Source of the DNA: an uncultured Planctomycetota bacterium
GTDB taxonomy: Bacteria; Planctomycetota; Planctomycetia; Gemmatales; Gemmataceae
NCBI GenBank assembly: GCA_963849325.1
Contig: CAWKHF010000004.1
Location: 352,001-416,000, forward strand
Length of the DNA: 64,000 nt
Reading direction: 5' to 3'
The notes under the pieces are model-generated. The model made no database searches and had not been told where the DNA came from. It worked only from the letters and a program-made list of their open reading frames with translations. The position numbers and the translations under genes are program-made. Below, in pieces: positions 4,190-35,197 of the stretch. Within the stretch, counting starts at the first letter, position 1, and each line of letters opens with the position of its first letter.

Positions 4190-4466
4190 GGTTGCCTCCT
4201 CTATCAACATCTCCCCGGAAGGAGAGATCCATAACATATCCCTTGACTCCATCGCTCGCAGCGACTTCACCTTGTCTTAACTATGCTGCGAATGGCGTGC
4301 CGAAATCTCGCGGCAGGGAACGGCGCAGACCAGAGAGGCGCGGCCCGAAAGCATCGGTGAGCTTCTGATTTTTCGCCCGTCGTCTCTTGTCGATCCATTA
4401 CAATAGGGCCATCGGAAAGTGCTGGGCCGAAGGGCCGCCGGTGCCTTCCGCAACGAGAACGATGCC

Positions 4467-6420: not shown

Positions 6421-7891
6421 ATGAACCATCGTTTTTATCCCTTATGGATTTCTCGCCGCGAGATGCTCTGTCAGGCCGGGCTTGGTTTCGGCTCCTGGGC
6501 CTTGCTCGATCTGCTGACGCGCGATGGCCGACTGACTGCGGCAACACCAATGGTTGGCAGCAATCCGCTGGCCGCTCGATGTCCGCATTCGCCGGCGCGG
6601 GCCAAGCACGTGATCTTCCTGTTCATGCAAGGCGGACCCAGCCACATCGACACCTTCGATCCAAAACCGCTGCTGAACAAGCTCCACGGTCAACGGCTGC
6701 CCGACAGCGTCATCGAAGGCCATCAGCTCCAGTTCACCAAACGGGACGCGGCCATTCTCGGCTGTCCGCAGACCTTCCGCCGATGTGGCCGGTCGGGCCT
6801 GGAAATCGCCGATACCTACCCGCACTTGCAGACCTGCGCCGACGAGCTGGCCGTGGTACGTTCGTGCTACCATGACTCGTTCAACCATGCTCCGGCGCAG
6901 TACGTGCTGAACACCGGCTCGGCGCGCATGGGTCGTCCCTGCCTCGGCTCGTGGGTGACGTATGGCCTGGGCAGCGTATCGGAGAACTTGCCCGCCTTCG
7001 TTGTCATGGCCACGACCGGCGACGTCAAGGGCGGCCCGCCGGTCTACGACCGCGGCTTCCTGCCCGGCACCTATCAGCCGACCGTCCTGCGCAATGCCGG
7101 TTCGCCGATGCTGTACCTGGACGCGCCCGCCGGCCACGGCAACGCCGGCCAGCGCGACGTGCTCGATCTGGTGCAGTCGCTCAATGACGACCACCGCACG
7201 GCCCGCGGCGGCGACGTGAGCGATCTGTCGGCGCGCATCGCCTCCTACGAGTTGGCCTTCCGCATGCAGAGCGCCGTGCCCGACGCGGTGGACCTAGCTC
7301 GGGAGACCGAGGCGACGAAACGGCTGTACGGCCTGGACGACAAGATGTCGGCGAAATTCGGCACCGACTGTCTGCTGGCGCGGCGGCTGGTGGAGCGCGG
7401 CGTGCGCTTCGTACAGATTTTCACCGGCAGCGCCGGTGCTGACGACTGGGACGCGGCCCACGCCGACAACGACCGCACGCACCGCGACATGGCTCGGCGC
7501 ATCGATAAACCGATCGCGGGCCTGCTGAAGGACCTCCAAGCGCGGGGTCTGCTGGACGAGACGCTGGTGATCTGGGGCGGCGAGTTTGGCCGCACGCCGG
7601 TGGCTGACGGCCGCTATCCCGACAAGCGCAGCCGGCCGCGACCATAACCCCTACGGCTTCACGATCTGGTTGGCCGGGGGCGGCGTCAAGGGCGGTCGGG
7701 CCATCGGCGCCACCGACGAGTTCGGCTTCCGCGCCGTCCACGACCGCGTCCACGTCAACGACTTGCACGCCACCATCCTGCGGCTGCTCGGCCTGGACCA
7801 CGAGCAGCTGACGTTCCTGTTCCAGGGCCGCCATCAGCGCCTGACCGACGTTGGCGGCCACCGCGAGTTCACCGAGCGCTTGCTCGCTTAG
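6421..7891 (+). CDS. DUF1501 family protein, frameshift near 7635
   Basis: [77 protein letters not shown]. Confidence 0.93.
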
Positions 7892-11000: not shown

Positions 11001-14000
11001 AGGCTTGCTGGAAACCAGCGAAGGAGAGCCAGTCTCGATCCGTCGCCGGCACGGAGGACGGCAACCCTCCTCGGATCACCACAGGCATCATCGACCAGAA
11101 CAGCACATAAACGGGCCAGCCTAGCAGCACGAAGTAAAATCCCGCGCCGACCGCTGTCCGTTCGATCGTGCAGGCCAGCAAACCGACTGCGGCCAGTCCG
11201 CCAACGAAGAGCAGGCTCCACGGCAGCGCGAAACGCCGCTGCCTGTACCAGACGACCAATGCCGCCAGGCTCGCCAGCAAGGCCAGCCAGCCCAGCGGCG
11301 AGCCGGCGGCAGCGGACCACGCCGCCCATCCGTTCGTAAGATCGCCGAGAGCGAAGATGGCGACGCCGAGGAGCACGAGCTGCCCCGCCAGGGCCAGGCC
11401 AATCTGCAACCACATCAACGGTGTGGCCGTGGCCGAAGGAACATACTCGGAAGCGTCCGACATTTCCCGCCAGGCATACACCCAGCGCCGGCTCACTTGC
11501 CAGCCCAGCGCCCACAGGGCCGCCGAGAGACTGGCGAGCTGCAACAGGCAAACGATCTCGCTAGTACCCAGGTGACTACCGCCTGTCACCACCGCCAGGG
11601 CGTAGCCGCCGGTCACGCTGACGTTGGCGACGAGGCCGGCTGTGAAGGCATAGACCGGCGAGCGCTCGCGCACCGCATGGCCCACCAATCCGAGCGTGAG
11701 GAGGAGCAGTGGCGTCACGTTCGACACGACCCAGCCCATGTCCGCGAAGATCGAACCCGGTAGGGGGCCGGTGGGACGCATGGCGGCGAAGCCGAGCACC
11801 GCCACCTGTGCCGTCAACAACAGCACGGCGGCGGCGACGACGCCGAGCAACCCATGCGTCCACGGAACGGCGAGCGAATCCGCAGAGTAAGTGATGCCGA
11901 CCGACGCCGACAGGCGCGTCAGCGTATGCCGCAGCCACAGACACGCCGAGCAGGTCAGGTAGCACAGGGCCAACCCCCAGCGGAGCGCCGAGGCCGTCGC
12001 GCACGGGGATGCAAAGGGTCCGGCGGCGAGCACGGGCACCGTCACCGCCAGCACGAGCAGGCCGAGAAGGATACTGGCTCTTCCCCTCTCGCGCAGCGCC
12101 GCCAGAAGCACGAGCGCCAGCACGCCCAGCAGTGCCCAGGCGCCGGGTCCGTAAGCATGGGGTGCCATGGACGGCCAGGCGATCGAGGAGACATAACCGG
12201 CGGGGATCAGCTCGGCGTTGACGCCGGACGCGATGCCCCACAGCGCCAGCGCGAGCTGTCCGACGACGAGAGCGCCGAGCATCACACGGTCCAACGAGGG
12301 CCAGGGAGCTTGCCACAACCCCCGCACGCGCGGGTTGGCCGACAGGCCGGCGCGGGCGATGGTCCAGCCGAGGCCGAGCAAGCCCAGACCGAGGCCATAC
12401 GCCTGCAAACTTCGCGGATCGAACCAGTCCTGTTGTTCGGGAAGCCAAGCCGTGACCGCGAAGACGACGGCCGTGCTCAGGGCGGCCTGAAACGCCGTGA
12501 ACCAGGCCGGCGAACGCTGCATCCAGGCGACGATCAACCAGAGGACGGCGAGCCAAAGCGTGTACCCGGCGAGCGTCAGCGGCGTGACTCCGGGCAGAAG
12601 CAGCAGCGGCACGGCCAGCAGGGATGTCAGTTGGGCCGATTGCTCCAACGGCGCGCGGAGGGGAGAGTTGTCGTCCTCGCCACGGCTTTGCACGACAATC
12701 GCGCCAAGCAGGACAAGCGTAGCGTGAGTCAGCAGGGCCATCAGCAGCGGGCGCGGCACCGCCAGGGTGGCGAGATCCCAGATCCAGAGATGAGCCAAGG
12801 CGGCGAAGATCAACGTCGATCCGAGCCAGGCCAGCTCGCGGCGGCGGAGGACATGAGCGAGCAGGAACGCCGTTACGGCGAGGACGGCCGAGGTGCCGGT
12901 GTGAAGTTCCTGAGCGGGGAAACCCGGCGTGAGCAGGGCCAGCACGAGAGCGAGTACGGCCACAACAGCAGCGACATCGCGGCAGGCGCCTCGGAGCGAA
13001 TGCGGCCGCAAGGCGACCATCGCCAGGACGGCGGACTCCAGGGCCAGGATAAAGCTCCAGAGCGCGAGATTATCGGGCGCGATTGCCCACAATCCCCACA
13101 GGCTGGCGGCGGCGAGCAGACCCAGGCCGGTATACGGCAAAGCAGGGCGGCGCCAGCGGACGTACATCGCCAGGGCACAGGCCCCGGCCAAACCGTCTGC
13201 CAGCGCGGCGGACCCGGCGAATCGATCCCATGCCATGCCGTTGTCAGCAGAGCGATCATCCCAAGAGCCAGGCAGCCGAGCGCGTAGGCGGAGGCATGAA
13301 GGCGTTGGTTGGCGCGAGCAAGTCCCTCAGAGCCAGCGGCCAGGAGCAGCATGAGCACGGCCATCGTGACACCGCTCGACGGCGACAGCAGTTGACGAGC
13401 GAGCCACCAGCCGGGGGCCGTTTCCGGGGCAGCCACAAGGCCGCCCAGTGTAAACGTGACGGCGATCAGCACGGCCAGCGCCGCGCAGGGCAGGGCGACG
13501 GCATGGGCGAAGTGTTCCTGCCAGCGGAAAGCGACAGCGCTGAGGATGACGGCGTTGACGAGACAGACGAGGAACACCGCCAGAGGCTGCGGCCAGGCCA
13601 GGGCGACGGCCGACAGCATGATCGCCAGGCCGGTGAAGGCAACAGCCGTGCCCGCCGTGCGCGGCGCGGCATTCTCCTCCCTGGGCAGCCCACGGCGGAC
13701 CAGCAGACCCCCGGCCAGAATCGGCACCCCCGCCAGGGTCAACGGCACGGCCAGGCGCGGCAGCGCGGCCGCGAGGTCGGGGCTGCGCGACAGCAGAAAA
13801 CCGAGGGCGACGAACAGGGCGAAGCTCGCCAGGCCAAGAAACACGAACAGGGCGTTGACCTGACGAACCTCCAGGCGCTGGTTCTCGGTTCGCGCCCGCG
13901 CGCGAGCAAGTCCGGCGACGACGGCGCCGCACGCCAGCACCTGACAGGCGACCGGCACACAGCCCAGGACGACGAAGAGGACCGGATGCGGTTCGTCGAG

Positions 14001-15354
14001 CAGACGCGGCACGATCAATTGACTCCCGGCGGCGCCGACGATGGCCAGCATGAACAGCCAACGGCGATCGATCGGACCAGGCAAGACGCCGACGCCGATC
14101 AGATCGCGTCCGGCCAGGCGAATCATGCCCAGCGACAGAAACACGGCGGCCGACTTGAACGCCCATTCGAGCGCGGAATGGGCGTGTCCAAGCGAGGGGT
14201 CAGCGAGGACCAGCAAATTGAGCGGCACCAGCAAGAGGGCGATGACCAGCAGACCGCGGCTGGTGGATTCGAGCTTCCAGTGATGCAGCGTGTATTCACC
14301 GGCGCCGAACAGGGCGGCGGTGATGCAGGCGAAGATGAGGAAGGGGAAATACGGCAGTTCTTCCAGGCTGTGCCAGAGCGTGATGACCAGCGCGATGGAA
14401 CAGCCGACGATGAGCAGACCGCCGGTCAACTCGCCCCACAGGATGTTGCGCTCCTCCATGAACGCCGCCAGCACGTTCGTCAGCGACCGGCGCGGCCGGC
14501 GCGGGGCCGTAATCACCGGCGGCACGACCGGGATCGGGGCAGCGGATACGGAGCGGACAGCGACCGGAGAAGGCCGGACGGGAAGTCGCTTCGAGGACTT
14601 CGGCCGGTTCGACCACGGCGACGGCCGACGGCGCCTGTACGGACTCATCCACCCGGCCGAGCTGCGCCCGCGCCTCTTCGTACTCCGTCACCGACAGGAC
14701 GCCGGCGAGCGCCAGACGAAAGAAACGGTGAGCCAGATCGACTTGATCTTCGTGGAGGGCAAGGCGTCCGGCCTCCAGGGCCACCTGTGCGTGGCCGTCC
14801 AACTCGGGATGTTCGTCGAGCAGGCGGCGGTAGGTGTGGAGGGCGTGCGAAGTCATGCCGGCCAGGGCGAGCAGACGTGCCAGGGCCAGCAGCGTCGGCG
14901 GCTTCAGCGTGGCCCGCTGGCTGTTATTCAGCTGGCGATAACAGGCCAGAGCCTCTTGCCGGCGTTGGAGGGGCAAGTCGCGCGGATGGACCCCCTGTCC
15001 CAGCAACTCTTCGAGCTGGGCCACGGAACCGGCCGGTGCCAGGGGCGCCGGCTTCACAATGGGGGCGGTGTATTGCGGTCGCAGAGACCGGCGCCGGGCT
15101 TCCAGGCATTGCTCCAGGCGGTCAACGGTGGCTTGATCCAGTTCCCCGTTAGCCAACAAAGAGCGGATCGTCCGAGTTGTTATCTCCAGTTCGCGCAAGG
15201 GGAGATCGTCCGGGCGTTCGCGGACAGGCTCGACGTGCTGCCGGCGCGGCCCCGAAAACACGAGCCGGACCAGGGCGGCGACAGCCAGCCACATAAGATG
15301 GCCGACCACCATGACGAAGGCGAGAATCAGGATGAAGATGAGCAGAGCATCCAC
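8020..15354 (-). CDS. Giant polytopic membrane protein (~2400 aa), about 4 frameshifts
   Basis: AGGAGG RBS then GTG at 15354. Hydrophobic coding continues across ORFs 14296-15465, 12873-14648, 8020-13236 and 8559-9548, with dozens of TM-like segments. No catalytic motif recognised. Confidence 0.8.
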
Positions 15355-15371
15355 GTGGAAACTCCTCCTCA

Positions 15372-15534
15372 TCTGAGTTCTGAGTTCTGAGTTCTGAGTG
15401 AAAACAGAACTCAGGACTTTGGGAACGGCCCTGGATTCAAGGCACGGAGGCGGCGTTCCTGTCACGCTCCTTCAAGTTCGGAATTCTGAGTCAAGCATAC
15501 AATACTCAGAACTCAGAACTCAGAACTCAGAACT
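15372..15534. repeat. Inverted 7-mer tandem arrays (CTGAGTT)n ... (ACTCAGA)n spanning a divergent promoter region
   Basis: ctgagttctgagttctgagttctgag at about 15372-15398 and ctcagaactcagaactcagaactcagaact at about 15505-15534, with degenerate copies between. Confidence 0.9.
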
Positions 15535-15539
15535 TTGCA

Positions 15540-15568
15540 GCAATCCGGCACTCCCCAGTCCTCGTCTA
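15540..15568 (+). promoter_or_regulatory. Possible autoregulatory ECF promoter
   Basis: GCAATC-N17-CGTCTA 13 nt before the sigma start; resembles the AAC/CGT ECF consensus; not verified. Confidence 0.3.
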
Positions 15569-15581
15569 GAAGGGTGACGGT

Positions 15582-16136
15582 ATGAGCAGACCTGCCACGC
15601 CTGCGTATAACCTGGCGACAAGCGACGGTCCCGTGCAGCCCAACCCCGGCGAGATCTTGCTGCGCACCTTCACGGACCTGCGCGACGAGCTGGTCAGCAC
15701 GCTCTGTTTCCTCCTGGGCAACGCCGACGACGCCCAGGACGTGGCGCAAGAGGCGTTCCTGCGCTGTTGGCGGACGCAGGAGGGCTTGCCCGAGGTGCAG
15801 AACCTGCGGGCCTGGATCTTTCGCGTGGGCCTGAACGCCGCCAAGGATCTGCAGCGCAGCGCCTGGCGTCGCCGGGTCAAACCGCTGCTGGGGGCCGATG
15901 CCATGCCGACGACGGAGACCGCCTCGCCGCTGAGCAGCCTGGAAGACCAGGAAACCCTGCAGCGCCTGCGGCAAGCCGTCTTGCACCTGCGGCCCGAGGA
16001 GAAGGAAGTTTTCCTCCTGCGCCAGAACGGCGAACTGACCTACGAACAGATCGCCGAGCTGTACGACCGCCCCGTGGGGACGGTCAAGACCCAGATGCGC
16101 ACCGCCCTCCAGAAGCTGCGCAAGATCCTGACCTGA
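15582..16136 (+). CDS. ECF (sigma-70 group 4) sigma factor
   Basis: DAQDVAQEAFLRCW, LRAWIFRVGLN, LTYEQIAE..RPVGTVKTQMRTALQKLR. Confidence 0.95.
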   Translation: MSRPATPAYNLATSDGPVQPNPGEILLRTFTDLRDELVSTLCFLLGNADDAQDVAQEAFLRCWRTQEGLPEVQNLRAWIFRVGLNAAKDLQRSAWRRRVKPLLGADAMPTTETASPLSSLEDQETLQRLRQAVLHLRPEEKEVFLLRQNGELTYEQIAELYDRPVGTVKTQMRTALQKLRKILT

Positions 16137-16222
16137 CCTCCCTCGATGAGATCCCCCGGACCCGACTTTTATTCCCTCGCGTCGGGCCGAAGGACGATGA
16201 TGACCGCCGACCGGAGTAGACC

Positions 16223-19200
16223 ATGCTCAGCTGCGAAACGTGCCGCCCTCAGATGCTCGAATACCTCTACGACCTGCTCGAAAGCGACGAGCGTCAGGCA
16301 TTGGAGACCCATCTAAACGACTGCCCGGCCTGTCAGGCGGAGTTGGTCAAGGCCCGGGGCCAGCAACAACTCTTGGCGGCGGCCGCGAAGATGGACTTCC
16401 CCGAGGTACGTTTCACGCCTCCGGCCATCCAGCAGGGACCGCCCGCCCAGCGTGAAGCGGTCCTTTTGCCGCGCCAGCGTCGTCCTCGTCACGGACGCCG
16501 CTGGGCCGCTGCGGCGGCCGTGTTGCTCCTCCTCGGTGGGGCCGCTCCCGCCGTCTGGTTTGCCCACGATTACCACCGCACCCAGGAGATCGTCACGCAA
16601 GGCCGGCTCCGCATCGAGCAGGCGATGAAAGAGAGCGCCGCCGTCCAGACGCAGCTCGCTCGGCTGCCCGAGGAAAAGGACAGGCGGAAGGAAGCGATCC
16701 TCAACGCCCAGCGCGATTCGCAGCTCCAGGTGAAGGTGCAAGGCCCCGCCACGATGCGCGTCGGTGCGCCGACCGACTACCAGATTGAAACGGCGAACCT
16801 CAACGGCCAGCCGACGGCGGCGAAGGTGTCGGTGGAAGTGAAGGACCACGGCCAGCCGATCGGCAAGCCGATCGCGGTCGCCGCCGCCGCGCCGGGTGTG
16901 TACCGATTGACGTTGCCGGCGGATCTGCCGGTGCGGCCCGGCAGTCAGCCGGCCCTCGTGGTGTCCGCTCGCCGCGACAACGGCTCGCAGGCCGAGCTGC
17001 GCGAGGAGCTGCAGCTGGCCGCCCCCGTTTACGTCACGCACCTGGAGATCGACAAGCCGATGTATCAGCTCGGCGAGACGGTCCACTTCCGCTCGCTGAC
17101 CCTGGACCGATTCAGCCTCACGCCGGCCGAGCAGGACCTGAACGTGCAATACGTCCTGACGCTGCCCAGCGGTGAGCAGCGCGTCGTCGCGGGGGGCCGA
17201 ACGGCCGTGTATGCCGAGGGATCGGCCGCCGGCAAGGAACTGCTGGGACCGGACCAGAAACCACTGCGCGGCATCGGCGCGGGGTCGTTCCCTATCGACG
17301 CGGGCTGGAGCGGCGGCGAGTATGCGCTGACGGTGCGCGAGGTCAACGGCCGTTGTCCCGAGCAGCGCCGCAAGTTCCTCGTCAACAAGTACGAGAGGCC
17401 GCATCTGAACAAGGAGCTGGATTTCAGCCGCAAGTCTTACGGGCCCGGCGACGAGGTCACCGCCCGCTGCAAGGCGAAGTACCTCGACGGTCGGCCCGTC
17501 AAGAACTGCACCGTCCGGGCCAGCGTCAAGATCGACGGCCAATCCTACGGAGCGGACGGCAAGGACGGCGGAGCGTTCGCGTTCCAGACCGATGACGAAG
17601 GCGCCGTCAACGTCCGCTTCCAGCTGCCGGCGCAGATCGAGCGCGGCCTGGGCAGTGTCTCCGTCGAGTTCGCCGACCGGGCCATGCCGGATACGCTCGT
17701 CCGGCCCATCCCGATCGTGCTGAAAAAGCTGGACGTGGAGTTCTGCCCCGAGGGCGGCGACCTGGTGGCCGGCCTGCGCAACCGCGTGTATTTCCAGGTG
17801 CGCAGCACGCTCGGCAAGCCCGCCGACTTGCGCGGGCAGCTGCTCGAAGACGGCAAGCCGCTCGGCGTGACGGTCGAGACGCTGGCGAGCGAGAAGGATC
17901 CCGAACTGAACCAGGGCATGGGCCGCTTCGAGTTCACGCCGCGGACCGGACACAAGTACGAGCTGAAAGTCGAATCGCCGGTCGGTGTCACGCAGCCTTA
18001 TCCAGCTGCCGGCCGTGTCGGCCGGACGGCGTGGTGCTGAGCATGCCGCAAGGCGTGGTCCGCGCCGAGGAGGCGATCCCGGTGATCGGTGCGCAGCGCG
18101 GCGAAACGCTCGCTGCTGGTCGGCGCCTACTGCCGTGGCCGACTGCTCGATTCGACCGAGCTGGGCGCGGTCCACTTCCACGGCAATGAGGCCCGTGCGG
18201 TGCTCCAGCCGGCGAGCGGGGCTGGCGGCGTGTGCCGCGTGACCGTGTTCGAGGTGCTGCCCGGCGACGCGGCGCGGCGGACGCTGCAAGCCGGTGGCGG
18301 AACGGCTCATCTATCGCCGACCGGCCGAGCACGTGCAGCTCGCCCTCAAGCCGGACCAGAAGACCTATGTGCCGCGACAAACCGTGAAGCTGGGCGTCGA
18401 GGCGACGACGGAGAAGGGTGAGCCGGCGCCGGCGGTGGTGCTGCTGCGCGTGGTCGATAAGAGCGTGGTGACGCTGGCCGACGACAAGACGCTGCGGGCC
18501 ATGCCGACGCATTTCCTGCTGACGACGGAAGTGCGCCGCCCCGAGGATCTGGAGTACGCCGACTTCCTGCTGGGGCCGCATCCGCGCGCGGCCGAGGCGC
18601 TGGACCTGCTGCTGGGCACGCAGGGCTGGCGCCGCTTCGCCGAGCAGGATCCGGGCAAGTTCCGCAATGAGCAGAAGGAGGAGGCGGAGCGGCTGCTGGT
18701 GACCATCGGCCAGTCCCAGCCGCGAATGACGGACCTGACCGAGCAGGAACTGGCCCGCGTCGAGGAGGAATACGCTCGCCGCACCGCCGAGTTGAGGGAC
18801 CAGGCGGCCCAGGCCGGCAAGGACGAGGAGGACGCCCGCAAGGACACGGACTATCGTGCCGCCCTGGTCAAGCTGGCTGCCGACGACGACTTCATCGACC
18901 GGGCGCGTCTGGTGGGTGCCCCGGTGCTGGGTGCGCTGCTCGTGGTGGCGGCGGTCGTCTTCCTGCTGCTGGGTCTGTTCCGCAAGCTGGCTCGCGCCCT
19001 GCCGTATTACGCCGCCACGACCGCGCTGTGCGGTTGTTGTCGTGTTGCTGGCGAAGGCGAATCTGAGACTTCGAGCCGCTGGCCCCGCGTCATGCCCATC
19101 ACGAGGTCGCCCGGATGGCCCAGCGCCTGCGCCGGACGTGGAGGAGAGGAAGGAGGCGGAAAAGCTGGCCGAGAAGGCGGAGCGAGGGGACTTTGACAAG

Positions 19201-21815
19201 AACCAACCCATCAAGAAGGCCAAGATAATAAGACAGGAAGCCGCCATGCCCGCGGCGCCAGCGCTGGACGGCGCCAAGCCAGGCGGCATGCCGCTGCCCA
19301 TGATGGTGGGGGGGATGGCCAATGATCAGGCGCATGGCCGGGGTGCTTTCCGTCCACAGATGCAGGACGCGGAAGGCAAGGGGATGGCTTTGCGGAAACA
19401 GTTCGAGTTCCGCGGCCTGGAGAAGCAGAAGGACGCAGCGCCGCCTTCGGAATCCAGAAGGACGTGCCGATGGCCAAGGAGAAGGCCGACGGCTTCGCAC
19501 TCCCGGCGATGAGGAACGCGGAAAACCTGATGCGCGACAAGCGGATGCCGGCCCGCCCGCGGCGAACTGCTCGGCCGAAGGTTCATGGGCGCGGGCGACA
19601 AGAAGCCAATGGCCTGGCCGGCCATGCCGGTGCGCGTGTTCGCCCACGCCCGTGCCAGCGGCCCCGCCGAGGTGCGCTACGACTTCGCCGAGACGCTGTA
19701 CTGGCACCCCGTCCTCGTGCTGCCCGGCGGCAAGGCGGACGTGTCCTTCGACCTGTGCGATTCGCTGGGCGCCTTCGAGGTGACGGCCTTCGCCCACACG
19801 CTGGACGGCCGGCTCGGCTCGGCCACGCAGACGCTCACCGTCGCGTCTGCCGTTCACCGTCGCAGCCGCGCACGCCGCTGGAGGTGACGGCCGGCGACAA
19901 GATCGACATCGCCCTGGCCGTCGCCAACAACACCGGCGAGGGCCGCACCGCCCACGTCTCCGTCACGGAGCACGCCAACCTGTCCCTCCTCAGCGGCACG
20001 CCCGCTACGGACGTGTCGGTGCCCGCCGAGTCGTCGGTCCGCAAGCTGTATCGCTTCCGGCCGACGGTCCAGGAGGGCACGGCCACGCTGACCTTCACCG
20101 GCAAGGCCGATGGGTTCCCCGCCGACAGCGTGCGCACGACCTTCCGCATCGTGCCCGAGGGCTTCCCCATCGTCGCCGCGCACAGCGACGTGCTGGAGAA
20201 GTCGGCCTTGACGGACGTGGTGCTGCCCCAACCTGGATCAAGGGCACTCTCGAAATGCCAGGTCCAGGTCTATCCCTCCACGCTGGCCGATCTGCAAAAG
20301 GGCCTGGAAGGGCTGCTGCGCGAGCCGGGCGGCTGCTTCGAGCAGACCTCGACGAGCAACTATCCGAACCTGCTCATCCTGCGACTATCTCAAGGAGAGC
20401 GATCAGGCCAAGCCGGAAGTCGAACGCCGCGCCCGCGAGCTGCTCGACCGCGGCTATCAGAAGCTGACCTCGTTTGAGTGTACCAACACGGCCAAGCACA
20501 CGAAGGAAGGCTACGAGTGGTTCGGCGGCACCGCTCCGGCCCACGAGGCGCTGACGGCCTACGGCCTGATGGAGTTCCGCGACATGGCCCGCGTCCACGA
20601 GGTCGATCCGGCCATGCTGAAGCGGACGCAGCAGTATCTGCTCGATCAGCGCGACGGCAAGGGCGGCTTCAAGCGCAATGCCCGCGCCCTCGACACGTTC
20701 GGCCGCGCTCCCGAGCACATCACCAACGCCTACATCGTCTGGGCGCTGACCGAGGGCGGCAAGGACGACGACATCACCAAGGAACTGAACGCCCTGCAGC
20801 GAACAGGCGAAGACGTCGAAAGATCCTTATTTCCTCGCTCTTGTCGCCAATAGCCTCATCAACCGGGCGAAGACGGCCGACGCCGCGGTCCTGCTCCACA
20901 AGGCGGCCGAGCTGCAAAAGGCCGACGGCCATCTCGACGCCGAGCAGACGAGCATCACCGGCTCGGGCGGCCGCGACTTGCAGATCGAGACGACGGCCCT
21001 GGCGGTGCTCGGCTGGCTGAAGGCCAACCCCGGCGAGTTCAACGCCGCATCCAGAAGGCGATCCACTGGATCGGCCAGCAGCGCGGCGGCTACGGCGGCT
21101 TCGGCTCGACGCAATCGACCATCCTGGCGCTGAAGGCGCTGATCCTGTACACCAAGGCCAACAAGAAGACGCCGGAAGCGGGCGAGCTGCGGCTGTTCGT
21201 CGGCGAGAAGCAAGTCGCCGCGCTGCCGTTCGCCGCCGGCGCGACGGAGACGCTGACCCTGAAGGTGCCCGACGCCGAGACGACGTTGAAGCCGGGCAAG
21301 AACCCGGTGCGCGTCGAGATCACCGGCAAGAACGTCTTCCCGTACACGCTGACCTGGTCGTATCAGACGCGGCAGCCGGCCAGCGCCGACAACTGCCCGG
21401 TGAAGCTGGCGACGAAGCTCGACCGCACCGAGGCCCGCGAGGGCGAGACGGTGCAGCTGAACGTCCGCGTCGAGAACGCGCAGCGGCAAGGGCCAGGGCA
21501 TGACGGTGGCCATCCTCGGCCTGCCCGGCGGCCTGACCATCCCGGAGGACATGAAGCAACTGAAGGACTACACGCGGCAGCCGACGGACGGCGAAGCGGC
21601 CGCTGGTGAGTTACTTCGAGATCCGCGGCCGCGAGCTGGTGCTGTACTGGCGCGACCTGGCTCCGGACCAGAAGATCGAGGTGCCGATCGACCTGATTTG
21701 CCGCGTGCCGGGCGAGTACAGCGGCCCCGCCAGCCGGGCGTATCTGTACTACAACGCCGACCGCAAGCACTGGGTCGAGCCGCTGAAAATCGGCATCGCG
21801 GCCAAAGCGGAGTGA
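16223..21815 (+). CDS. zf-HC2 anti-sigma domain fused to thioester alpha-2-macroglobulin family protein (~1860 aa, >10 frameshifts)
   Basis: N-terminal HLNDCPAC then TM. MG2 motif DKPMYQLGETVHFR; EFCPEGGDLVAG; VVDKSV; DLLLGTQGWRRF; FAETLYWHP; thioester GCFEQ (20331-20345); GYEWFGG; ALTAYGL; FGSTQSTILALKAL; ASRAYLYY. Confidence 0.88.
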
Positions 21816-21891: not shown

Positions 21892-22047
21892 ATGATCGAA
21901 CTCACCTACCTTTCCGATGACGCCGAATGGACGGAAGACGAGCTGCGACTCCAGTTGGCCCGATCCGCCAAGGAGAATGGCTGGGACGAAGCGGGTATGG
22001 AGGACTACGACCGTTACGATGAGGAACGGCGCAAGCGATGTCCGTAA
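21892..22047 (+). CDS. Small acidic protein (51 aa), probable antitoxin
   Basis: GAGGAGGG RBS; MIELTYLSDDAEWTEDEL..GWDEAGMEDYDRYDEERRKRCP; overlaps the start of the next ORF like a TA pair. Confidence 0.5.
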   Translation: MIELTYLSDDAEWTEDELRLQLARSAKENGWDEAGMEDYDRYDEERRKRCP

Positions 22048-22109
22048 ACTGCGACGACGTCATCCTGACCTATGTGTCGAACGTCGGTAGTCCCAACGGC
22101 AGGGGCTAG
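22038..22109 (+). pseudogene. Truncated PemK/MazF-like toxin N-terminus
   Basis: MSVNCDDVILTYVSNVGSPNGRG* resembles the MazF start (xxRGDVxLx..P...G) but stops before the KxRP motif, at the 3' end of the opposite-strand gene. Confidence 0.4.
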
Positions 22110-22840
22110 GGCGCCCTCGCCCACTCCAAGACGACCGGCAGCCTGAGTTGTGCTTCTCGAACCCTCTCGATGCGCTTGGGAATATTTCGTATGGCCTCTT
22201 GTTCCCACCGTATATTCTCCGCGACAACCCTCTTACGCCCTTCGAGAGATTCTCGCATGACCGGATCGTCGGGTATCGGCTCCTGGTTCAGGCGTGCCAG
22301 GCGGGCTTCCAGATAACGAACCGATTTCATCGCTCGTTCTTGCATCTTCTTGAGCTGCACCTCCAGAGCCTTGCCTCTCCCCCTGGCGAAAAACGCCTTG
22401 TCCCAGGCCCGGACCACAGCGTTGATGAAGGCAGCCTGCTCCTCAGCACTGCCATCGACCAACGAAACCCGGACGATGCCCTGTTTTCCCGCCAGTACGG
22501 GCCGCAAGACTTCCGGCTCATCCAATAGCTCGACCCGCAGGGTGTTCTTCAGCCATCGCTTGCCGCGCCAGAAGCCCAGGAAATTAGCGACAGCGGGATC
22601 TTCTAGGGCAGGCTGAAGGACGTTTTCCTCGTCGCGAAATTCACTCGCGCGGAATTGGAACACTTCGGCGCGGTCCTTCCCTTCTCTATACGGCGAGAAG
22701 CGAATGGGATCGCCGAGCCACACCAAGGCGTACACGGTCGGTTCCTTTGTCTTGCCAGTTCGCGCCAAGTCGAAGCAGCCGCAAGATCCGGACAGGGAAG
22801 CAGCGAATACCAGAAAGATCGGTAGCTGGAAGCGGACCAT
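22106..22840 (-). CDS. Exported coiled-coil hypothetical protein, resembling a Wzc/Wzz periplasmic segment
   Basis: GGAGG RBS, hydrophobic N-terminus with Cys, IVRVSL..EQAAFINAVVRAW followed by a coiled coil. Confidence 0.55.
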   Translation of the reverse strand: MVRFQLPIFLVFAASLSGSCGCFDLARTGKTKEPTVYALVWLGDPIRFSPYREGKDRAEVFQFRASEFRDEENVLQPALEDPAVANFLGFWRGKRWLKNTLRVELLDEPEVLRPVLAGKQGIVRVSLVDGSAEEQAAFINAVVRAWDKAFFARGRGKALEVQLKKMQERAMKSVRYLEARLARLNQEPIPDDPVMRESLEGRKRVVAENIRWEQEAIRNIPKRIERVREAQLRLPVVLEWARAP

Positions 22841-22910
22841 GACAGACCTCCGCGATGGAAATGCCCGGAACGCAAACCCGGCCGCTACACGCGCCAGATA
22901 ATGAGTCAAG

Positions 22911-25514
22911 CTAGACGCCATAGCGCCGAAACAGCACCTGGACCACCCCATTCTTCAAGGCGTTGTCGTCCACCAACAATGTATAGCCTCCCCATAGCTT
23001 ATTGGGGGGTAGGGGAGAATAAGGACTGGCTTGGGGGATCGGCCTGGCGCCGGCCTCGGTCACGTCCTTAGTGGGTAAAAGCGGAATTACCACCTCCCAG
23101 CTCGAGCCTCCCCGGCCCCAACCGTTGGCGGCGTTGTTGATAGTGGCAAGTTGGATGACGTTACCAGTCCCCCAGTTCACGGTGGTATTGCCGTTGAGGA
23201 GAACGATTTGGTCGCAAAAGTTGTTTTTCGCACCATTGACATGGACATCGAGTTCGCCGTTGAAGTTGATGGTGGCGGCATTTATGGAGATAACGCCGTG
23301 CGGTCTAGTATCTCCACTATAAAGGAAGGCTACCTTGCTACCGGACCCGATCGTTACCGTGCCACTCCCATCACCGGCTTGGAGAGTTGCAGCGCCGGCA
23401 CTATTGCTGCCGTGGGCATCAAGGAGAGTGGAATTCCCCTCCTGATCGTAGCCGGAGGCGGCGACCAGGGTGATGCCTTGTAGCGAAGTATAACCATTAT
23501 TTTCGCCGCTGGAATACCACGACACGTTGGGATTGGGTAACGTCGGGTCCGTGCCTGTCACTGTCAGAATGCCCCCGTCGCCTTTGGCGGTGAAGTCGCC
23601 GGCATTCCAGACCGGAACCTCAATACGGTCCGCTGCCCCACCAGAGCCGCAAAAGTAGACAGAGCCGCTGAAGTTGCCCACGGCGCTATAGCCGATCGAT
23701 AAGCTCTCCCCGCCCTTCCCGTCGCCGGTGATAAAGGTGGTGGCGAAGCCTTTATCATTCAGGTCCAACTCACCTCCCGAGGACACCAGGATGTAGCCGC
23801 CATTCACCAGGTTGATTGGGTTGCTGTTGGCGACGGAATTGTAGACCATGGCGCCGCCGTCCAGCTTGAGTTCATCGCTGATACTCATGTTGTAATTTCC
23901 GCCAACCGTCACGGCGCCGCCGGACAGGTGGACGATACCATCTCCCGTGAAAGCCCAGTTGTACCAAGTCTGGGAGCCTCCGGCCAGCACCAAGGAAGAA
24001 CTGGTGTCGGGCACGCTGATGTTGATGAGCGTTCTGCCGTTGCCGTCTTCCTGAATGTCGTTGTTGACCGTAAGGGTCGCATCCACGAGCGTCTGCGCGG
24101 CGTTGTAGCCGGCGGAGAGGTTCATGGCGGTCAGGCTGGCATCCTCCGTCCAGTTGATCGGGCTATTACTGGTCGTCGAGTAATTGCCCACCAGCAACAC
24201 CGTGACATTATTGGTCGTGTTCGGGGCTATCACCCCCTGCTTTGTCTGCGATACGTCATACCAGTTTCCTGCCAGAGAGCCATCCTGGCTTAGTACACCA
24301 TTGATAACTTGCGGGTTCCAGATCAAAGTATCCCCATCGGTCGGCGTAGGCGTCGGAGTCGGTGTGGGCGTAGGCGTTGGAGTCGGCGTGGGCGTAGGCG
24401 TTGGAGTTGGCGTCGGAGTTGGTGTCGGCGTAGGCGTTGGAGTGGGTGTGGGCGTCGGTGTTGGAGTGGGCGTCGGAGTTGGTGTGGGCGTCGGGGTTGG
24501 TGTAGGTGTGGGCGTCGGAGTAGGCGTGGGTGTCGGCGTCGGAGTTGGCGTCGGTGTGGGTGTAGGTGTCGGAGTTGGTGTAGGTGTGGGCGTCGGAGTA
24601 GGCGTGGGCGTAGGCGTTGGAGTTGGCGTGGGCGTAGGGGTTGGAGTGGGTGTGGGCGTCGGTGTCGGAGTACCGCCGCTGCTGCTCGTCGTGCCACCGC
24701 CGCCGCCACCGCCACTGCTACTCGTCGTGCCGCCACCACCACTGCCGCTGCTGCTCGTGATACCGCCGCCACCCCCGCTACTGCTCGTGATGCCGCCACC
24801 TCCACCGCTGCTACTCGTGATGCCACCGCCTCCACCGCTGCTACTCGCGATGCCGCCACCACCGCCGCTACTACTCGCGAGACCGCCACCGCCGCCGAGG
24901 GCCATCCCCGCAGCCATTACCGAAGCCGATGGCCGAATCTCCGAAAGGACCGATGGCGAAGCCGAACGAAAGATTCGGCCCGCGTTGCTGCCGAACTCGG
25001 CCTGCCAGACCGACACGGCCAGCGGCACTCCGGCCGGAGACAAGAGATGTGCGTCGTCGGGACCGCGGACGGAGCCAACGGCCGAAGGATGCTCCCCCTC
25101 TCGCCATTGGATCTGCACCGCCGTCTTCGAGGAGGAGGGCAACGCCGGCAGCGCCGACTGGGCCGCGTGCGTTTCCTCATGGAGGGCCTCATTCGCCGGC
25201 GAAGGCATCGACGGCTGCGCGTGCTGGGCCGCGAGGGCGGCCGGCGGCGCATCCACCAGCGTCGCCGAGGGCATCGCGCGCTCCTCCAATCCTTCCAGAA
25301 CCAGCCGCTGCGGCGGCTGGGGACGGCGACGTTTCGGGAGCTTCGGCGCGCTTGGGGCTTCACCGCCCAGCCACCATCGGCATACTTGTACCATTCTCCG
25401 CAGCCATCCAGACCACGAGATGCGCCCGAAGAATAAAATGGTTTGGTGGGGGCAAATGTAGCCATTTGCGTCTTTGCGGATGGTGCGAGTACGTGTCTTC
25501 AGCCAGGCGAACAT
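22911..25514 (-). CDS. Planctomycete surface/extracellular protein with Gly-Ser and Pro-Thr linkers and a beta-rich C-terminal domain
   Basis: RRRP..RLVLEGLEERAMPS motif; 7 GGGGGxxSSS units; about 55 PT dipeptides; G/N/T/S-rich passenger-like C-terminus; start uncertain. Confidence 0.8.
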   Translation of the reverse strand: MFAWLKTRTRTIRKDANGYICPHQTILFFGRISWSGWLRRMVQVCRWWLGGEAPSAPKLPKRRRPQPPQRLVLEGLEERAMPSATLVDAPPAALAAQHAQPSMPSPANEALHEETHAAQSALPALPSSSKTAVQIQWREGEHPSAVGSVRGPDDAHLLSPAGVPLAVSVWQAEFGSNAGRIFRSASPSVLSEIRPSASVMAAGMALGGGGGLASSSGGGGGIASSSGGGGGITSSSGGGGGITSSSGGGGGITSSSGSGGGGTTSSSGGGGGGGTTSSSGGTPTPTPTPTPTPTPTPTPTPTPTPTPTPTPTPTPTPTPTPTPTPTPTPTPTPTPTPTPTPTPTPTPTPTPTPTPTPTPTPTPTPTPTPTPTPTPTPTPTPTPTPTPTPTPTDGDTLIWNPQVINGVLSQDGSLAGNWYDVSQTKQGVIAPNTTNNVTVLLVGNYSTTSNSPINWTEDASLTAMNLSAGYNAAQTLVDATLTVNNDIQEDGNGRTLINISVPDTSSSLVLAGGSQTWYNWAFTGDGIVHLSGGAVTVGGNYNMSISDELKLDGGAMVYNSVANSNPINLVNGGYILVSSGGELDLNDKGFATTFITGDGKGGESLSIGYSAVGNFSGSVYFCGSGGAADRIEVPVWNAGDFTAKGDGGILTVTGTDPTLPNPNVSWYSSGENNGYTSLQGITLVAASGYDQEGNSTLLDAHGSNSAGAATLQAGDGSGTVTIGSGSKVAFLYSGDTRPHGVISINAATINFNGELDVHVNGAKNNFCDQIVLLNGNTTVNWGTGNVIQLATINNAANGWGRGGSSWEVVIPLLPTKDVTEAGARPIPQASPYSPLPPNKLWGGYTLLVDDNALKNGVVQVLFRRYGV
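24339..24897 (-). repeat. Coding low-complexity repeats (PT)~55 and (G5xxS3)x7
   Basis: 6-nt periodicity with mixed synonymous codons at 24339-24672; about 30-nt periodicity at 24673-24897. Confidence 0.95.
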
Positions 25515-25823
25515 GGGCCGGCTCCTTGGGGTGACTCCGGAAGCCGGGCAACGTCCCGACGACAGAACCTGCAATCGATCGCGTTAACGGATACGAGAAG
25601 GAGAACCCCTCTCCGGAATGCGTCCGTTTGTAGCAGGCCGAGCACCGAAAGGCAAGCGAATAGTTGGCGGGAAGAAAAATATTCTGACGTGTGAACGGGA
25701 ACCCGAACATCCCCGAGAGGACCGGCGCAACGAAGACTCACAGGCAGTCGAACCTGCCTTGTGGACAGGGAGCACGAATTGGCTTGCCTTTGCGAGGGGA
25801 AGTGCAATTCATAACAAGGAAGT

Positions 25824-27783: not shown

Positions 27784-30700
27784 TCAAGCCTTCCGGTTGA
27801 ATTCCGTCGGTTCGACTCCCCACCACTGGAGGACGTAGAAGAACACCGGCGTCAAGAAGATGCCGAACAGCGTCACGCCCAACATGCCGGCGAACACGGC
27901 GACGCCCAGCGAACGGCGCATCTCGGCGCCGGCGCCCTCGGCGACCACCAACGGCACGACGCCGAGGATGAACGCGAACGACGTCATGATGATCGGCCGC
28001 AGACGTAGCTTGCACGCTTCCACGGTCGCCGACCACGCTGGCACGCCGGATTCGTGCTGCTGCTTGGCGAATTCGACAATCAAGATGGCGTTTTTACTGG
28101 CCAGGCCCACCAGCACCACGAAGCCGATCTGCGTGAAGATGGTCACCTCCAGGTGGGCGATCTGTACGCCGAGCAGGGAGCAGAACAGGCACATGGGCAC
28201 GACCAGGATGACGGCCAAGGGCAGCTTCCAGCTCTCGTACTGGGCGGCCAGCACCAGAAAGACGAACACCACCGCCAGGGCGAAGAAATACATCGCGGTG
28301 TCGCCGGCCTGCAGTTGCAGGTAAGCCAGCTCCGTCCACTCGGCGACCATCGAGCGCGGCAATTCCTCGTCGGCGATCCGCTGCATCTGGGCGACCGCCT
28401 GCCCCGAGCTGACGCCGGGGGCGGCGTCGCCGGTGATGGCGATAGACGAGTACATGTTGTAGCGCAAGACCATCACCGGCCCGCTGGTGTCGCGCACGTC
28501 CAGCAGGGTGCCCAGGCGGATCATCTGTCCCTGGTTGTTGCGCACCTGAAGCCGGCGGACATCGGCAACGTCGCTGCGGAAGCCCGGCGCGGCCTGGATG
28601 TTGACCTGCCAGGTCCGGCCGAACTCGTTGAAGTTGTTGACGTAGTACGAGCCGAAGTAGACCTGCAAGGTATTGAAGACGTCGCTGACCTGCACGCCCA
28701 GGGCCATGCACTTGGTGCGGTCAATGTCCAGGTACAACGAGGGCGTGTCCGTGCCGGAGCTGTTGAACAGTCCCTGGACCTCCGGCGTGTCGGCGCCGTG
28801 CGAAACGATCGCCGTGCCGATCCGGCGCAGCTGCTCCGAACCGAGGTTGCCGCGATCCTCGACGATCAGCTTGAAGCCGCCGGTGTTGCCCAGACCGTCG
28901 ATCGGCGGCGCGCCGAACACGGACACGTTGGCGCCGCGCACCGCTCGGCAGCGCTCTTTCAGCGAAGCGGCGATGGCGTCAGCGCTCTGTTCGCGGCCGT
29001 GCCGCTGATCGAACGGCTTGAGCATAATGTACAGCGAGCCGAGGTTGGGCGCGTTGGCGTTGAGGATGAGAGATTGACCGGAGACGCCGACGGTATGCTC
29101 GACGCCGGGCGTCTCGCGGACCAGGGTGTCAATGCGAGCCATCATTCGTTGCGTGCGACCCACGGCGGCGGAGTCCGGCAACTGCACGTTGAGGATCAAA
29201 TAGCCCTTGTCCTGCTGCGGGATGAAGCCGCTGGGCGCGCGGGCGAATTGCCACCAGGTCATCGCCAGCAAACCGCCGTAAACCACCAGCACGATCAGGC
29301 TCAGACGCAGCACTCGGCCGACCGTCCAGCCATACAGGGTGGTCACGCGGTCGAAGAGACGGTTGAAGCCGCGAAACAGCCAGCCCAGCACGGCATTGAT
29401 CGGCCGGATGAACAACCAGCCGAAGAGCAAACCGGCCAGGGCGCCCGGCGTGAAGTAGATCGTCGAGATGGTCCACGTCAGCCAGGGGGGCGCCTCCTCG
29501 ACGTTGGCGACACCGAGCTGGGCATACAGGTCGAAACGGTCGTGGAGCAGGTCCGGCCCCAGCCAGGCGGTGGCGATCCCGCCGGCCACGCCGAAGATCC
29601 ACCACGGCAAGGCTTCCCGATGATGCGTGTGTTCCTTCCCGCTCGGATCGGACTTGAAGATGAGCACCGCCCGCGACGGCGTCATGGTGATGGCATTGAT
29701 GGCCGAGATTACCGTCGAAACCGCGATGGTCACGGCGAACTGGCGGAAGAATTGGCCGCTGACGCCGCCGAGGAAGCAGCACGGCAGGAACACCGAGGTC
29801 AAGACCAGCGTGATGGCCAGGACCGGGCCGGTGATCTCCTCCATGGCCTTGATGGTGGCCTCGCGCGGCTCGAGTCCGGTGGCGATCAAGCGCTCGATGT
29901 TTTCCAGGACCACAATGGCGTCATCGACGACGATGCCGATGGCCAGCACCAGGCCGAACAACGTCAGGTTGTTGAGCGTGAAACCCATCGCCGCCATGAT
30001 GGCGAAGGTGCCGATCAGCGACACGGGCACGTCGATCATCGGCAGGATCATGGCCCGCCAATCCTGCAAAAACAACAGCACGACGATGGCGACGAGGATC
30101 ACCGCGTCGCGCAGGGTGGCGAAGACCTCATGCACCGATTGGCGGATGAACGGCGTGGTGTCGTAAACGATCTGGTAATCCAGCCCCACGGGAAAGCGCG
30201 TTTTCAGCTCCTTCATCTTCGCTTTGACGCCGGCGGCGGTCTCCAGGGCGTTGGAGCCGGGCAGCTGGTAAATGGACAGGGCCACCGACGGTTGGCCGTC
30301 CAGGGTGCAGGACTGATCGTATTGCTGCGAGCCGCGTTCGACGCGGGCCACGTCGCGCAGACGGACGATGCCGGTGGACGCCAGCGTCGAGCTTTCCGGG
30401 ACGGAGGAGCTGCTCTGCGTCCCCAGCGGGTCCGAACTTTCCGAGCTGCTGGTGTCGGAGGAGGACGACGAACTGCTGCCGGTGGACGACTGGGCCAGTG
30501 GTTTGCCCGGCGTGGCCCTGAGAATGATGTCGGCGAACTCTTCCGGTTTGGAGAGCCGGCCACGAGTGTTGATGGTCAGCTGAAACTGCTGGCCGCGCGG
30601 CACCGGCTCCTGACCGATTTGCCCGGCGGCGACCTGGATGTTCTGCTGGGCGATGGCCGTCACCACGTCCATGGCGCTGAGGTTCATTGCTGCCAGTTTT

Positions 30701-34200: not shown

Positions 34201-35197
34201 CCGGTCGTGCCGCCGCCGGCCAAGGGTGCCGTGCTCGTCGCGGTGCCGCTGCTGATGGCGACGCTGGTTATCGCATTGGCACTGGTCGGAGGAGGGGTCG
34301 TCGTGGCGGTGGCGCCGCTCGTCCGGCGAAGGGTGCTTTGGGCCACCAAGGAGTTCGTGGCCGTCCCCGCGCTTCCACCACGGCGCGGAGACGCCATCTT
34401 GGGCGCCGACAACGCGGCCGAGCGCGGCTGGCCGACCTTGACGATGATGTCGCCGAACTGTTCGCGGGTGACGAGCCGGCCGAGGGTGAGGATCGGCAGC
34501 TGGAAGAACTGTCCGTCCGGAGCGGGCGATCGGCCGGTCTGCCCGGCGGCGCGTCCAGGCTCTGGCTGCGGATGGCCTGGGCCACGTCGGGTGCGGTCAG
34601 GTTGAGCGCCGCCATTTTATCGGCGTCCAGCCAGGCGCGGATGCTGTAATCGCGCTGGCCCAGGTAGCTGATGTCCGAGACGCCCGGCACGCGCAGCAAC
34701 TCGTCCTTGAGGTGGATGGTGGCGTAATTGCTCAGGTAGATGTCGTCGTAGCGATTGTCGGGCGAGAACAGGTTGACGATCATGAGCAGGTCGGGCGTGC
34801 GCTTGCGGATGGTGATGCCCTGGTTCTGCACCTCGATCGGCAGCTGCGGCATGGCCAGGGTGACGCGGTTTTGCACCATGACCAGGGCCGTTTTCAAGTC
34901 GGTGCCGATGTCGAAGGTGACGGTCAGCGTATAGGTGCCGTCGTTGCCACACTGCGACGACATGTACAACATGCCGGGTACGCCGTTGACCTGCTGCTCG
35001 ATCGGCGCCGCCAAGGTGTCCGCCACCACTTGCGCGTTGGCCCCCGGATAACTAATGGATACCGACACGCCCGGCGGCGTGATGCGCGGATACTGCGCCA
35101 CCGGCAGCGACAACAACGCCAGTCCGCCGATCAAGGTGATGACCAGCGACAGGACCGTGGCGAAAATCGGTCGGTCGATGAAAAAGTTGGAGATCAT
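31287..35197 (-). CDS. RND efflux transporter permease (HAE1), copy 1, frameshifts near 34420-34550
   Basis: MISNFFIDRPIFA, GIVVDDAIVVLEN, GLACKNAILVVEY, RLRPILMTS. Confidence 0.92.

Follow-up and report, generated by a model that had tools for sequence, protein, structure and literature searches.

An ECF sigma factor gene paired with an anti-sigma/alpha-2-macroglobulin fusion gene in Planctomycetota: a candidate self-replenishing protease trap

The in vivo role of bacterial alpha-2-macroglobulins (A2Ms) is still largely conjecture. A locus from an uncultured, soil-type planctomycete of the family Gemmataceae raises the question of whether such a protein can be wired to transcription and, if so, what the wiring would serve. 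The locus lies in a 64,000-nucleotide stretch of contig CAWKHF010000004.1 (assembly GCA_963849325.1, positions 352,001 to 416,000), here called the window. In it, a gene for an extracytoplasmic function (ECF) sigma factor is followed by a gene of about 1,860 codons in which a trap of the A2M type is fused to a sigma inhibitor. The pair forms a two-gene, self-regulated unit that is conserved across Planctomycetota and nearly universal in the sampled genomes of Gemmatales. We hold the fusion architecture and its linkage to the sigma gene with high confidence; what the unit does is weighed below.

The fusion can be read in a single open reading frame (ORF) of 605 aa (16223-18040), in which Pfam recognized zf-HC2 at aa 4 to 38 (24.1 bits; cut-off, 22.2) and MG2 at aa 403 to 485 (40.4 bits; cut-off, 32.8). 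Because both domains share one uninterrupted frame, the joining of anti-sigma and macroglobulin (MG) domains is independent of any frame repair, as had been claimed in the original prediction, which was made from the DNA letters and their translations. The same prediction placed an ECF sigma gene directly before the fusion gene, and this was borne out. The upstream ORF matched Sigma70_r2 (E 3.9e-11) and Sigma70_r4_2 (E 4.5e-13), and its small product contains regions 2 and 4 only, as an ECF (group IV) factor does. Among NCBIfam models, the superfamily model TIGR02937 (sigma70-ECF) was the only one above its cut-off for this protein (79.9 bits; cut-off, 42.9). The anti-sigma gene starts 86 nt downstream of the sigma gene. 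No NCBIfam model covers the fusion, for which the anti-sigma match was weak (26.3 bits versus a cut-off of 100).

Past about position 18000, the coding signal switches frames, and the pieces matched A2M_BRD (weakly, below cut-off), A2M, and TED_complement in Pfam. The final 13 or so codons of the 605-aa ORF are already off the true frame, the first break lying near 18002. Even so, the rebuilt gene proved real. A frameshift-aware alignment to the closest intact orthologue (G009, 1,870 aa) spanned 16223 to 21812; 1,454 of its 1,886 columns were identical, it contained no in-frame stop, and the thioester motif GCFEQ was intact on this path, as predicted. The feature coordinates are collected in Table 1.

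Within the order, 39 of 41 genomes (G000 included) had a match to the 605-aa ORF. At all 16 orthologous loci that were fetched, the gene is uninterrupted and encodes 1,423 to 2,040 aa; 14 of the proteins have 1,831 to 2,040 aa and a CxEQ motif of the GCFEQ type. A sigma gene precedes it on the same strand in 16 of 16 cases, at no more than 129 nt in 15 (by Pfam) and at 889 nt in 1. A scan of 185,579 species genomes then gave 525 relatives, of which the best 80 loci were analysed (5 being contigs fetched earlier). Among these 80, 45 had both the anti-sigma domain and the sigma gene, 2 had the domain with the upstream flank cut, 19 had lost the N terminus at a contig end, and 14 had no anti-sigma match. 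The sigma gene was thus present at 45 of the 47 anti-sigma-bearing loci, and the other 2 have truncated upstream DNA. Homologues without an ECF neighbour had been named beforehand as a finding that would speak against the proposal; the linkage held instead. The 14 loci without an anti-sigma match comprise 9 stand-alone open frames of 1,030 to 1,514 aa, with neither sigma gene nor transmembrane (TM) hairpin, from Planctomycetota, Myxococcota, and Sumerlaeota; 3 hairpin-bearing forms (L076, L087, and L095); and 2 that look broken. In L076, a Cys-rich, zinc-ribbon-like segment stands at the N terminus ahead of the first TM helix (TM1).

Carriers of the unit include Gemmataceae (Zavarzinella formosa DSM 19928 [locus L058], Fimbriiglobus, and Limnoglobus), Singulisphaera, Pirellulales, Thermoguttaceae, and Rubripirellula. 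An even sampling of the phylum (150 genomes) turned up 30 with a match at an E value of 1e-20 or better; by length, roughly a dozen of these were long forms (1,620 to 1,930 aa) and about fifteen were stand-alone forms (1,350 to 1,470 aa). In a tree of 60 C-terminal halves, 8 stand-alone forms lay on one side of a single branch (Shimodaira-Hasegawa-like approximate likelihood ratio test, 98), which in this unrooted tree is compatible with either one gain or one loss of the anti-sigma and hairpin parts. At least 358 protein clusters of the family are present in a large protein collection, under names such as "hypothetical," "anti-sigma factor RsiW," and "alpha-2-macroglobulin family protein." Downstream of the fusion gene, the frames of the 16 loci and the window showed no cross-locus similarity at an E value of 1e-8, and the conserved unit is therefore taken to consist of two genes. 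Five records of metagenome-assembled genomes (L042, L053, L063, L108, and L081) are titled "uncultured Alcaligenaceae bacterium"; these labels look wrong, because L042, L053, L063, and L108 cluster inside Gemmataceae clades of the tree.

RpoE-RseA and SigW-RsiW are pairs of an ECF sigma factor and a class I, single-pass anti-sigma factor in which the sigma factor is released by regulated proteolysis. The present pair resembles them in its gene order (sigma, then anti-sigma), in an N-terminal anti-sigma domain that the model below places between regions 2 and 4 of the sigma factor, in a TM helix whose cytoplasmic end has conserved alanines, in an autoregulatory ECF-type promoter, and in the presence of site-2 protease genes in the genome. 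It differs in that the extracytoplasmic part is not a small sensor domain: it measures about 1,750 aa and comes with two extra membrane passes. We know of no site-1 protease that has been described for, or linked to, the fusion protein.

When residues 1 to 75 of the window protein were modelled with the sigma factor, the complex scored 0.80 to 0.81 in three runs, against 0.01 for the best control. The anti-sigma domain was placed between regions 2 and 4, with contacts at sigma residues 23 to 63 and 122 to 183; the predicted local distance difference test score (pLDDT) of the partner was 85 or higher, and 83% or more of the contacts recurred between runs. Of 80 solved complexes, 58 passed the calibration mark for such scores, as did 2 of 110 mismatched pairs. 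Because ECF/anti-sigma complexes have already been solved, passing this mark may reflect likeness to solved pairs and does not show binding. On the strength of the model, the N-terminal domain probably binds the sigma factor, in line with the original prediction that it holds it.

A promoter-like element of ECF type, with an AAC-type -35 and a CGT-type -10, ends 14 nt upstream of the sigma ATG in the window. Together with the adjacent anti-sigma gene, this gives the arrangement expected in silico of an autoregulated ECF factor. A degenerate CAATCC-N16-CGTC dyad was found in 42 of 57 unique orthologous upstream regions, compared with a mean of 1.1 in shuffles (maximum, 5; n = 200) and 4 in the reverse complement. 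In 34 of the 42 dyad-bearing regions, the distance from the -10 end to the sigma ATG was 14 to 17 nt. In the window's genome, the exact pattern CAATCC-N15-17-TCGTC had 40 matches versus 1 for the reversed control, and only the operon's own copy was both clearly intergenic and correctly placed. Five other candidates were inspected (at a HEAT fragment, an aminotransferase frame, ParB, and two without Pfam hits), and none was convincing or pointed to a coherent target. Judged by these matches, the sigma factor seems mainly to drive its own operon. On this point the earlier proposal of a response to proteolytic attack needs correcting: the only recognizable promoter is the unit's own, and its output looks more like replacement of the trap than like a general response.

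By hydropathy, each of the 16 orthologues has three membrane helices, with TM1 at about aa 80 to 150 and a pair at about aa 890 to 1,025. The single TM helix of the original prediction was confirmed, and the pair had been missed. In the window protein, TM1 lies at about aa 93 to 113; A98, at its start, is invariant in 16 of 16 orthologues and kept in at least 90% of 43 sequences. The pair forms a hairpin whose loop, in the alignment, has 4 to 7 residues and bears Arg or Lys. Because the Arg-rich stretch before TM1 and the Arg/Lys loop fit such an orientation, the anti-sigma domain and the hairpin loop are predicted to be cytoplasmic and both A2M halves periplasmic.

An AlphaFold model of residues 1 to 1200 of the G009 protein (pLDDT, 77.9; predicted TM-score [pTM], 0.62) showed a helical anti-sigma domain (aa 4 to 55), a disordered tether, one long helix comprising TM1 and a stalk (aa 92 to 166), and beta-sandwich domains with high pLDDT (aa 169 to 744). 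These were followed by helices for TM2 (aa 874 to 917) and TM3 (aa 921 to 947) and by a stretch with a pLDDT below 50 (aa 949 to 1109). The hairpin and the linker behind it sit between the LDLLLGTQGWRRF helix and the start of the A2M domain, the usual location of an A2M bait. The LDLLLGTQGWRRF segment has the highest majority-residue frequency of all regions (0.83); the linker (139 to 313 aa in the 14 long forms) has the lowest conservation (0.30). The bait region claimed earlier needs a different description. Where an exposed bait within MG6 would be looked for, there are helices, the TM hairpin, and this disordered, hypervariable linker, so that the region is not canonical, and the linker may be the real bait.

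The thioester half is strongly conserved. The motif P-x-G-C-F-E-Q was invariant in 60 of 60 aligned C-terminal halves. A model of the last 771 residues (pLDDT, 89.0; pTM, 0.82) gave Foldseek TM-scores, by query length, of 0.62 to 0.69 to native C3, A2ML1, CD109, A2M, and TEP1, compared with 0.31 to 0.36 to C3b, protease-induced A2M, and an intermediate-form egg A2M. Because native forms match and activated or intermediate forms match poorly, the model represents the spring-loaded, thioester-shielded state. The N-terminal half contains an MG1-MG6 ring, which Foldseek aligned over 600 to 700 columns to the beta chains of C3, C4, and C5 and to TEP1, CD109, and A2M (E 1e-21 to 1e-25). In the trap mechanism proposed below, the thioester would be reactive and would capture proteases covalently.

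CD109, A2M, A2ML1, insect TEP1, and C3 were the best matches in sequence and fold over MG7-CUB-TED-MG8 and the MG1-6 ring. The nearest solved structures by sequence were CD109 (3.5e-50) and human A2M (1e-43), then A2ML1, TEP1, and C3. Against Escherichia coli YfhM, the profile E value was only 5.8e-9 and the match was confined to the A2M domain; Salmonella A2M gave 1e-4. CD109 is membrane anchored. The animal thioester proteins differ from the fusion protein in having neither an anti-sigma domain nor a TM hairpin, in being secreted or lipid anchored, and in that their activation is not wired to transcription.

Only two classes of bacterial A2M appear in passages of PMC4498604 and PMC3735191, neither of them tied to a regulator: lipoproteins with a CLEQ motif encoded beside pbpC, and the thioester-less MagD of a six-gene operon. 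By its sequence, the fusion protein belongs to neither. The first class (E. coli YfhM, also called ECAM, and Salmonella SaA2M) shares with the fusion protein a periplasmic position held at the inner membrane, MG domains, a disordered bait-type region, a CUB-TED-C-terminal MG arrangement, and CxEQ; its members are thought to trap proteases (PMC4498604, PMC3735191). In contrast to YfhM, the fusion protein has no signal peptide or lipobox. It starts instead with a predicted cytoplasmic anti-sigma domain and a TM helix, and a TM hairpin occupies the bait position. No penicillin-binding-protein domain was found in the 23 window ORFs scanned, pbpC not having been searched for elsewhere in the genome. 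The original prediction had named YfhM-type lipoproteins, often encoded beside pbpC, as characterized bacterial A2Ms; these results set the fusion protein apart from them. The second class (Pseudomonas aeruginosa MagD and E. coli YfaS) likewise consists of large MG-domain proteins at the inner membrane. MagD has no thioester cysteine, is encoded in the six-gene mag operon, and is anchored via partner proteins (PMC3735191). The fusion protein, in contrast, belongs to a two-gene unit, keeps the thioester motif without variation, and crosses the membrane itself.

A full-text literature search found no description of an anti-sigma/A2M fusion. The main texts of two ECF classification papers (PMC7826278 and PMC7406223) do not contain "macroglobulin," "MG2," or "A2M," and their supplementary group descriptions might mention such proteins. 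The topology of the fusion and its wiring to a sigma factor do not seem to have been described before.

Table 1. Features of the window discussed in the text (positions are those of the window)
Feature	Position	Strand	Evidence or remarks
DUF1501	6421-7647		After the PSCyt2/PSD1 ORFs
Divergent membrane-protein gene	12873-15465	-	No Pfam hits; syntenic with the sigma/A2M unit in G009, G006, and G012
ECF-type promoter-like element	15541..15567	+	-35 CAATCC (15541-15546), 16-nt spacer, -10 CGTC within TCGTCT (15562-15567)
ECF (group IV) sigma-70 factor gene, 184 aa	15582..16136	+	Pfam Sigma70_r2, Sigma70_r4_2
Anti-sigma/alpha-2-macroglobulin fusion gene, ~1,860 aa, broken in the assembly	16223..21815	+	Frameshift-aware alignment to the G009 orthologue; intact orthologues 1,423-2,040 aa
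Predicted cytoplasmic anti-sigma domain, class I, zf-HC2 type, H-x3-C-x2-C present	16223..16408	+	Pfam zf-HC2; orthologue model helices aa 4-55, pLDDT ~90; predicted sigma complex
Transmembrane helix 1 (TM1)	16499..16561	+	Hydropathy scan of 16 orthologues; Arg-rich stretch before, conserved Ala-Ala at start
Predicted periplasmic MG1-MG6 beta-sandwich block	16727..18458	+	Pfam MG2, weak A2M_BRD; orthologue model; Foldseek
Helical segment after BRD, motif LDLLLGTQGWRRF	18459..18704	+	Top family conservation, invariant columns
Transmembrane hairpin (TM2, short Arg/Lys loop, TM3) at bait-region position	18915..19068	+	Hydropathy peaks, loop alignment, model helices
Hypervariable disordered linker, candidate bait	19075..19563	+	Ala/Gly/Pro/Met/charged; length and conservation in 14 long forms; low pLDDT
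A2M domain (MG7)	19693..19961	+	Pfam A2M: window piece E 4.4e-6, orthologues E 1e-11 to 1e-15
Thioester domain (TED), GCFEQ at 20331-20345	20280..21150	+	Pfam TED_complement; invariant P-x-G-C-F-E-Q
Second half of CUB and C-terminal MG8 (receptor-binding type)	21151..21812	+	C-terminal model, Foldseek
Frame event sites in the fusion gene	near 18002, 18018, 18085, 18287, 19026, 19438, 19560, 19840, 19862, 20229, 20252, 20385, 20797, 21047, 21481, 21593		
Two tandem AcrB-family transporter genes	27784-30687, 31287-34412	-	ACR_tran E 1.6e-255, 9.9e-242

Taken together, the parts suggest a polytopic protein of the inner membrane (about 1,870 aa) that would begin with a cytoplasmic anti-sigma clamp, pass through TM1 and its stalk helix into a periplasmic MG1-MG6 ring, re-enter the membrane as a hairpin at the place of the bait, and continue through the disordered linker into MG7-CUB-TED(GCFEQ)-MG8 in a native, thioester-shielded arrangement. 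Such a protein could act as a membrane-tethered thioester protease trap. A protease that cut the linker would spring the trap; the spent molecule would then be removed, probably by regulated intramembrane proteolysis at TM1, and the freed sigma factor would transcribe its own operon so that the trap is replaced. Clearance at TM1 by a site-2 protease would resemble that of RsiW and RseA, and the conserved Ala-Ala at the start of TM1 and the Peptidase_M50 genes in the window's genome fit it. We regard the proposal of a self-replenishing, membrane-tethered trap whose consumption frees the sigma factor as evenly balanced between right and wrong. Release of the sigma factor coupled specifically to a protease, in which we infer every step from cleavage onward, is put forward more tentatively. 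More tentative still is the broader suggestion of a one-shot receptor, in which covalent capture or cleavage in the periplasm would be relayed through a three-helix membrane assembly (TM1 and the hairpin) to the sigma factor, so that a molecule of the innate-immunity type would feed directly into transcription. On that view, the family would form a third bacterial A2M class, confined largely to Planctomycetota.

Several points weigh against the self-replenishing trap. The coupling of linker cleavage to sigma release is itself conjectural, the membrane topology is read from hydropathy and charge, and the regulon search used one exact pattern in a genome that is 84.7% complete. Two short orthologues without CxEQ (L021, 1,468 aa, and L028, 1,423 aa; genomes G027 and G029) still have the MG block and the hairpin as well as an anti-sigma domain and a neighbouring sigma gene, and L021, the only short variant scanned with Pfam, had no A2M or TED match; signalling, if there is any, would therefore be independent of the thioester. 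L076, L087, and L095 carry the hairpin with no anti-sigma match and no upstream sigma match (the upstream DNA of L087 and L095 being short), so membrane insertion does not depend on linkage to a sigma gene. Finally, frame-breaking events in the window's copy are unevenly spread, with 16 in the 3' 3.6 kb, 0 in the 5' 1.8 kb, and 1 in 1.6 kb of the neighbouring gene.

The TED-less variants with their whole signalling part, together with the conjectural link from cleavage to release, also favour a reading in which the anti-sigma function is real and the signal is something other than bait proteolysis. The A2M body would then be a sensor or scaffold for envelope damage, for a ligand or surface bound by the MG ring, or for complement-like covalent tagging of a nonprotease target. 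Alternatively, a general envelope-stress protease cascade would free the sigma factor as it does from RseA or RsiW, and the A2M part would merely be the regulated product. The greater closeness of the family to CD109, TEP1, and C3, which are surface-tagging proteins, than to the protease trap YfhM points the same way. Against this stand the hypervariable and disordered character of the linker, which is that of bait regions; the thioester motif without exception; the native-like, spring-loaded arrangement modelled with confidence; and a sole recognizable promoter target, the operon itself, that fits replacement of a consumable. On balance, we consider a signal of another kind rather unlikely.

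If the coupling of trap consumption to sigma release is real, the activation of a bacterial A2M could be read with a simple promoter reporter, and the proteases or other attacks met in nature would become testable. The ECF repertoire would gain a new type of sensor, and a hairpin in the bait region would be a new topology in the A2M/complement superfamily. A cultured carrier exists in Z. formosa DSM 19928.

The window's own copy raises a separate question. Between 18002 and 21593 it contains 16 frame events: 12 are an extra base, 3 a missing base, and 1 a gap of two bases. The alignment shows another pair of events inside the intact 605-aa ORF, which offset each other and are noise. With the events concentrated in the 3' part of the gene, real decay of this copy has to be reckoned with. 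The 16 events would then be genuine mutations, and the product, if any, would be an anti-sigma/MG protein cut short at about 600 aa. The repaired path nevertheless has no in-frame stop, and its amino acid conservation equals that of intact genes. Similarity of the repaired window protein to G009 was 0.89 in the TED and 0.91 at the C terminus, compared with 0.89 and 0.83 (TED) and 0.90 and 0.77 (C terminus) for intact orthologues to each other. Bacterial mutation is biased towards deletions, whereas 12 of the 16 events are one-base insertions.

Other genes of the window are broken as well. The divergent gene that precedes the sigma gene, a single ORF in G009 and G006, is split here by one inserted base near 14589. 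The PSCyt2 (DUF1549) and PSD1 (DUF1553) domains normally belong to a single planctomycete protein; here they fall in two overlapping ORFs of different frame (4419 to 6411, plus strand), probably through another frame error of the assembly. The window's assembly has only 14 contigs yet a marker completeness of just 84.7%. The few-contig genomes G000, G002, and G007 combine low completeness with fragmented copies, whereas many-contig relatives have open frames of 1,808 to 2,041 aa. Metagenome coverage of the stretch consisted of short contigs of relatives and was informative at five indel sites alone. At these 5 of 16 break sites, contigs of related strains from four metagenome runs lacked the extra base (near 19838/9, 19861, 21480, and 21593/6) or had the missing one (near 21046), a result equally expected of strain-specific mutations. 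No public sequencing run contained more than 7% of the words sampled from the stretch, so that the exact sequence was found in none, which leaves some room for a pseudogene; none of the runs listed as sharing such words was an RNA run. A plot of G+C at third codon positions by frame was too noisy for counting frame breaks, the strands of the window not being separable. On this evidence the 16 breaks are most likely assembly errors, and a pseudogene is improbable.

That the N-terminal domain is a relic membrane anchor which no longer controls the sigma factor, with gene order kept for co-expression, is very improbable. The motif H-x3-C-x2-C is present in the window protein and lost in several orthologues (zf-HC2 was detected in 4 of 8 scanned), and some relatives have no anti-sigma match at all, as a relic would lead one to expect. 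Zinc-free anti-sigma domains are common, however, and the anti-sigma helix pattern with Y16, L18, L19, and A54 is conserved over 48 sequences; the predicted interface is confident and specific, and the sigma gene is adjacent in every domain-bearing locus with enough upstream DNA. We rejected the idea that programmed frameshifting or an alternative genetic code explains the breaks, given 16 events of mixed sign without shared context and orthologues that are plain open frames.

Directly downstream of the A2M gene (about 22000 to 24000), the G+C content is 0.57 to 0.61, versus 0.66 to 0.71 within the gene; synteny with relatives stops in the same interval, and the minus-strand ORFs 22106-22951 and 22911-25574 had no Pfam match. 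The two transporter genes farther downstream are of the resistance-nodulation-division type. Tandem heptamers (CAGAACT)n and the reverse-complement repeat, at 15380-15399 and 15503-15535, make up an inverted pair immediately before the sigma promoter; such heptamers stand again at about 36783-36886 and 37675. A 20-base version of this repeat occurred in 217 copies, grouped in 68 clusters over the genome and mostly arranged as inverted pairs, and it looks like a dispersed intergenic element resembling repetitive extragenic palindromes or miniature inverted-repeat transposable elements (REP/MITE-like).

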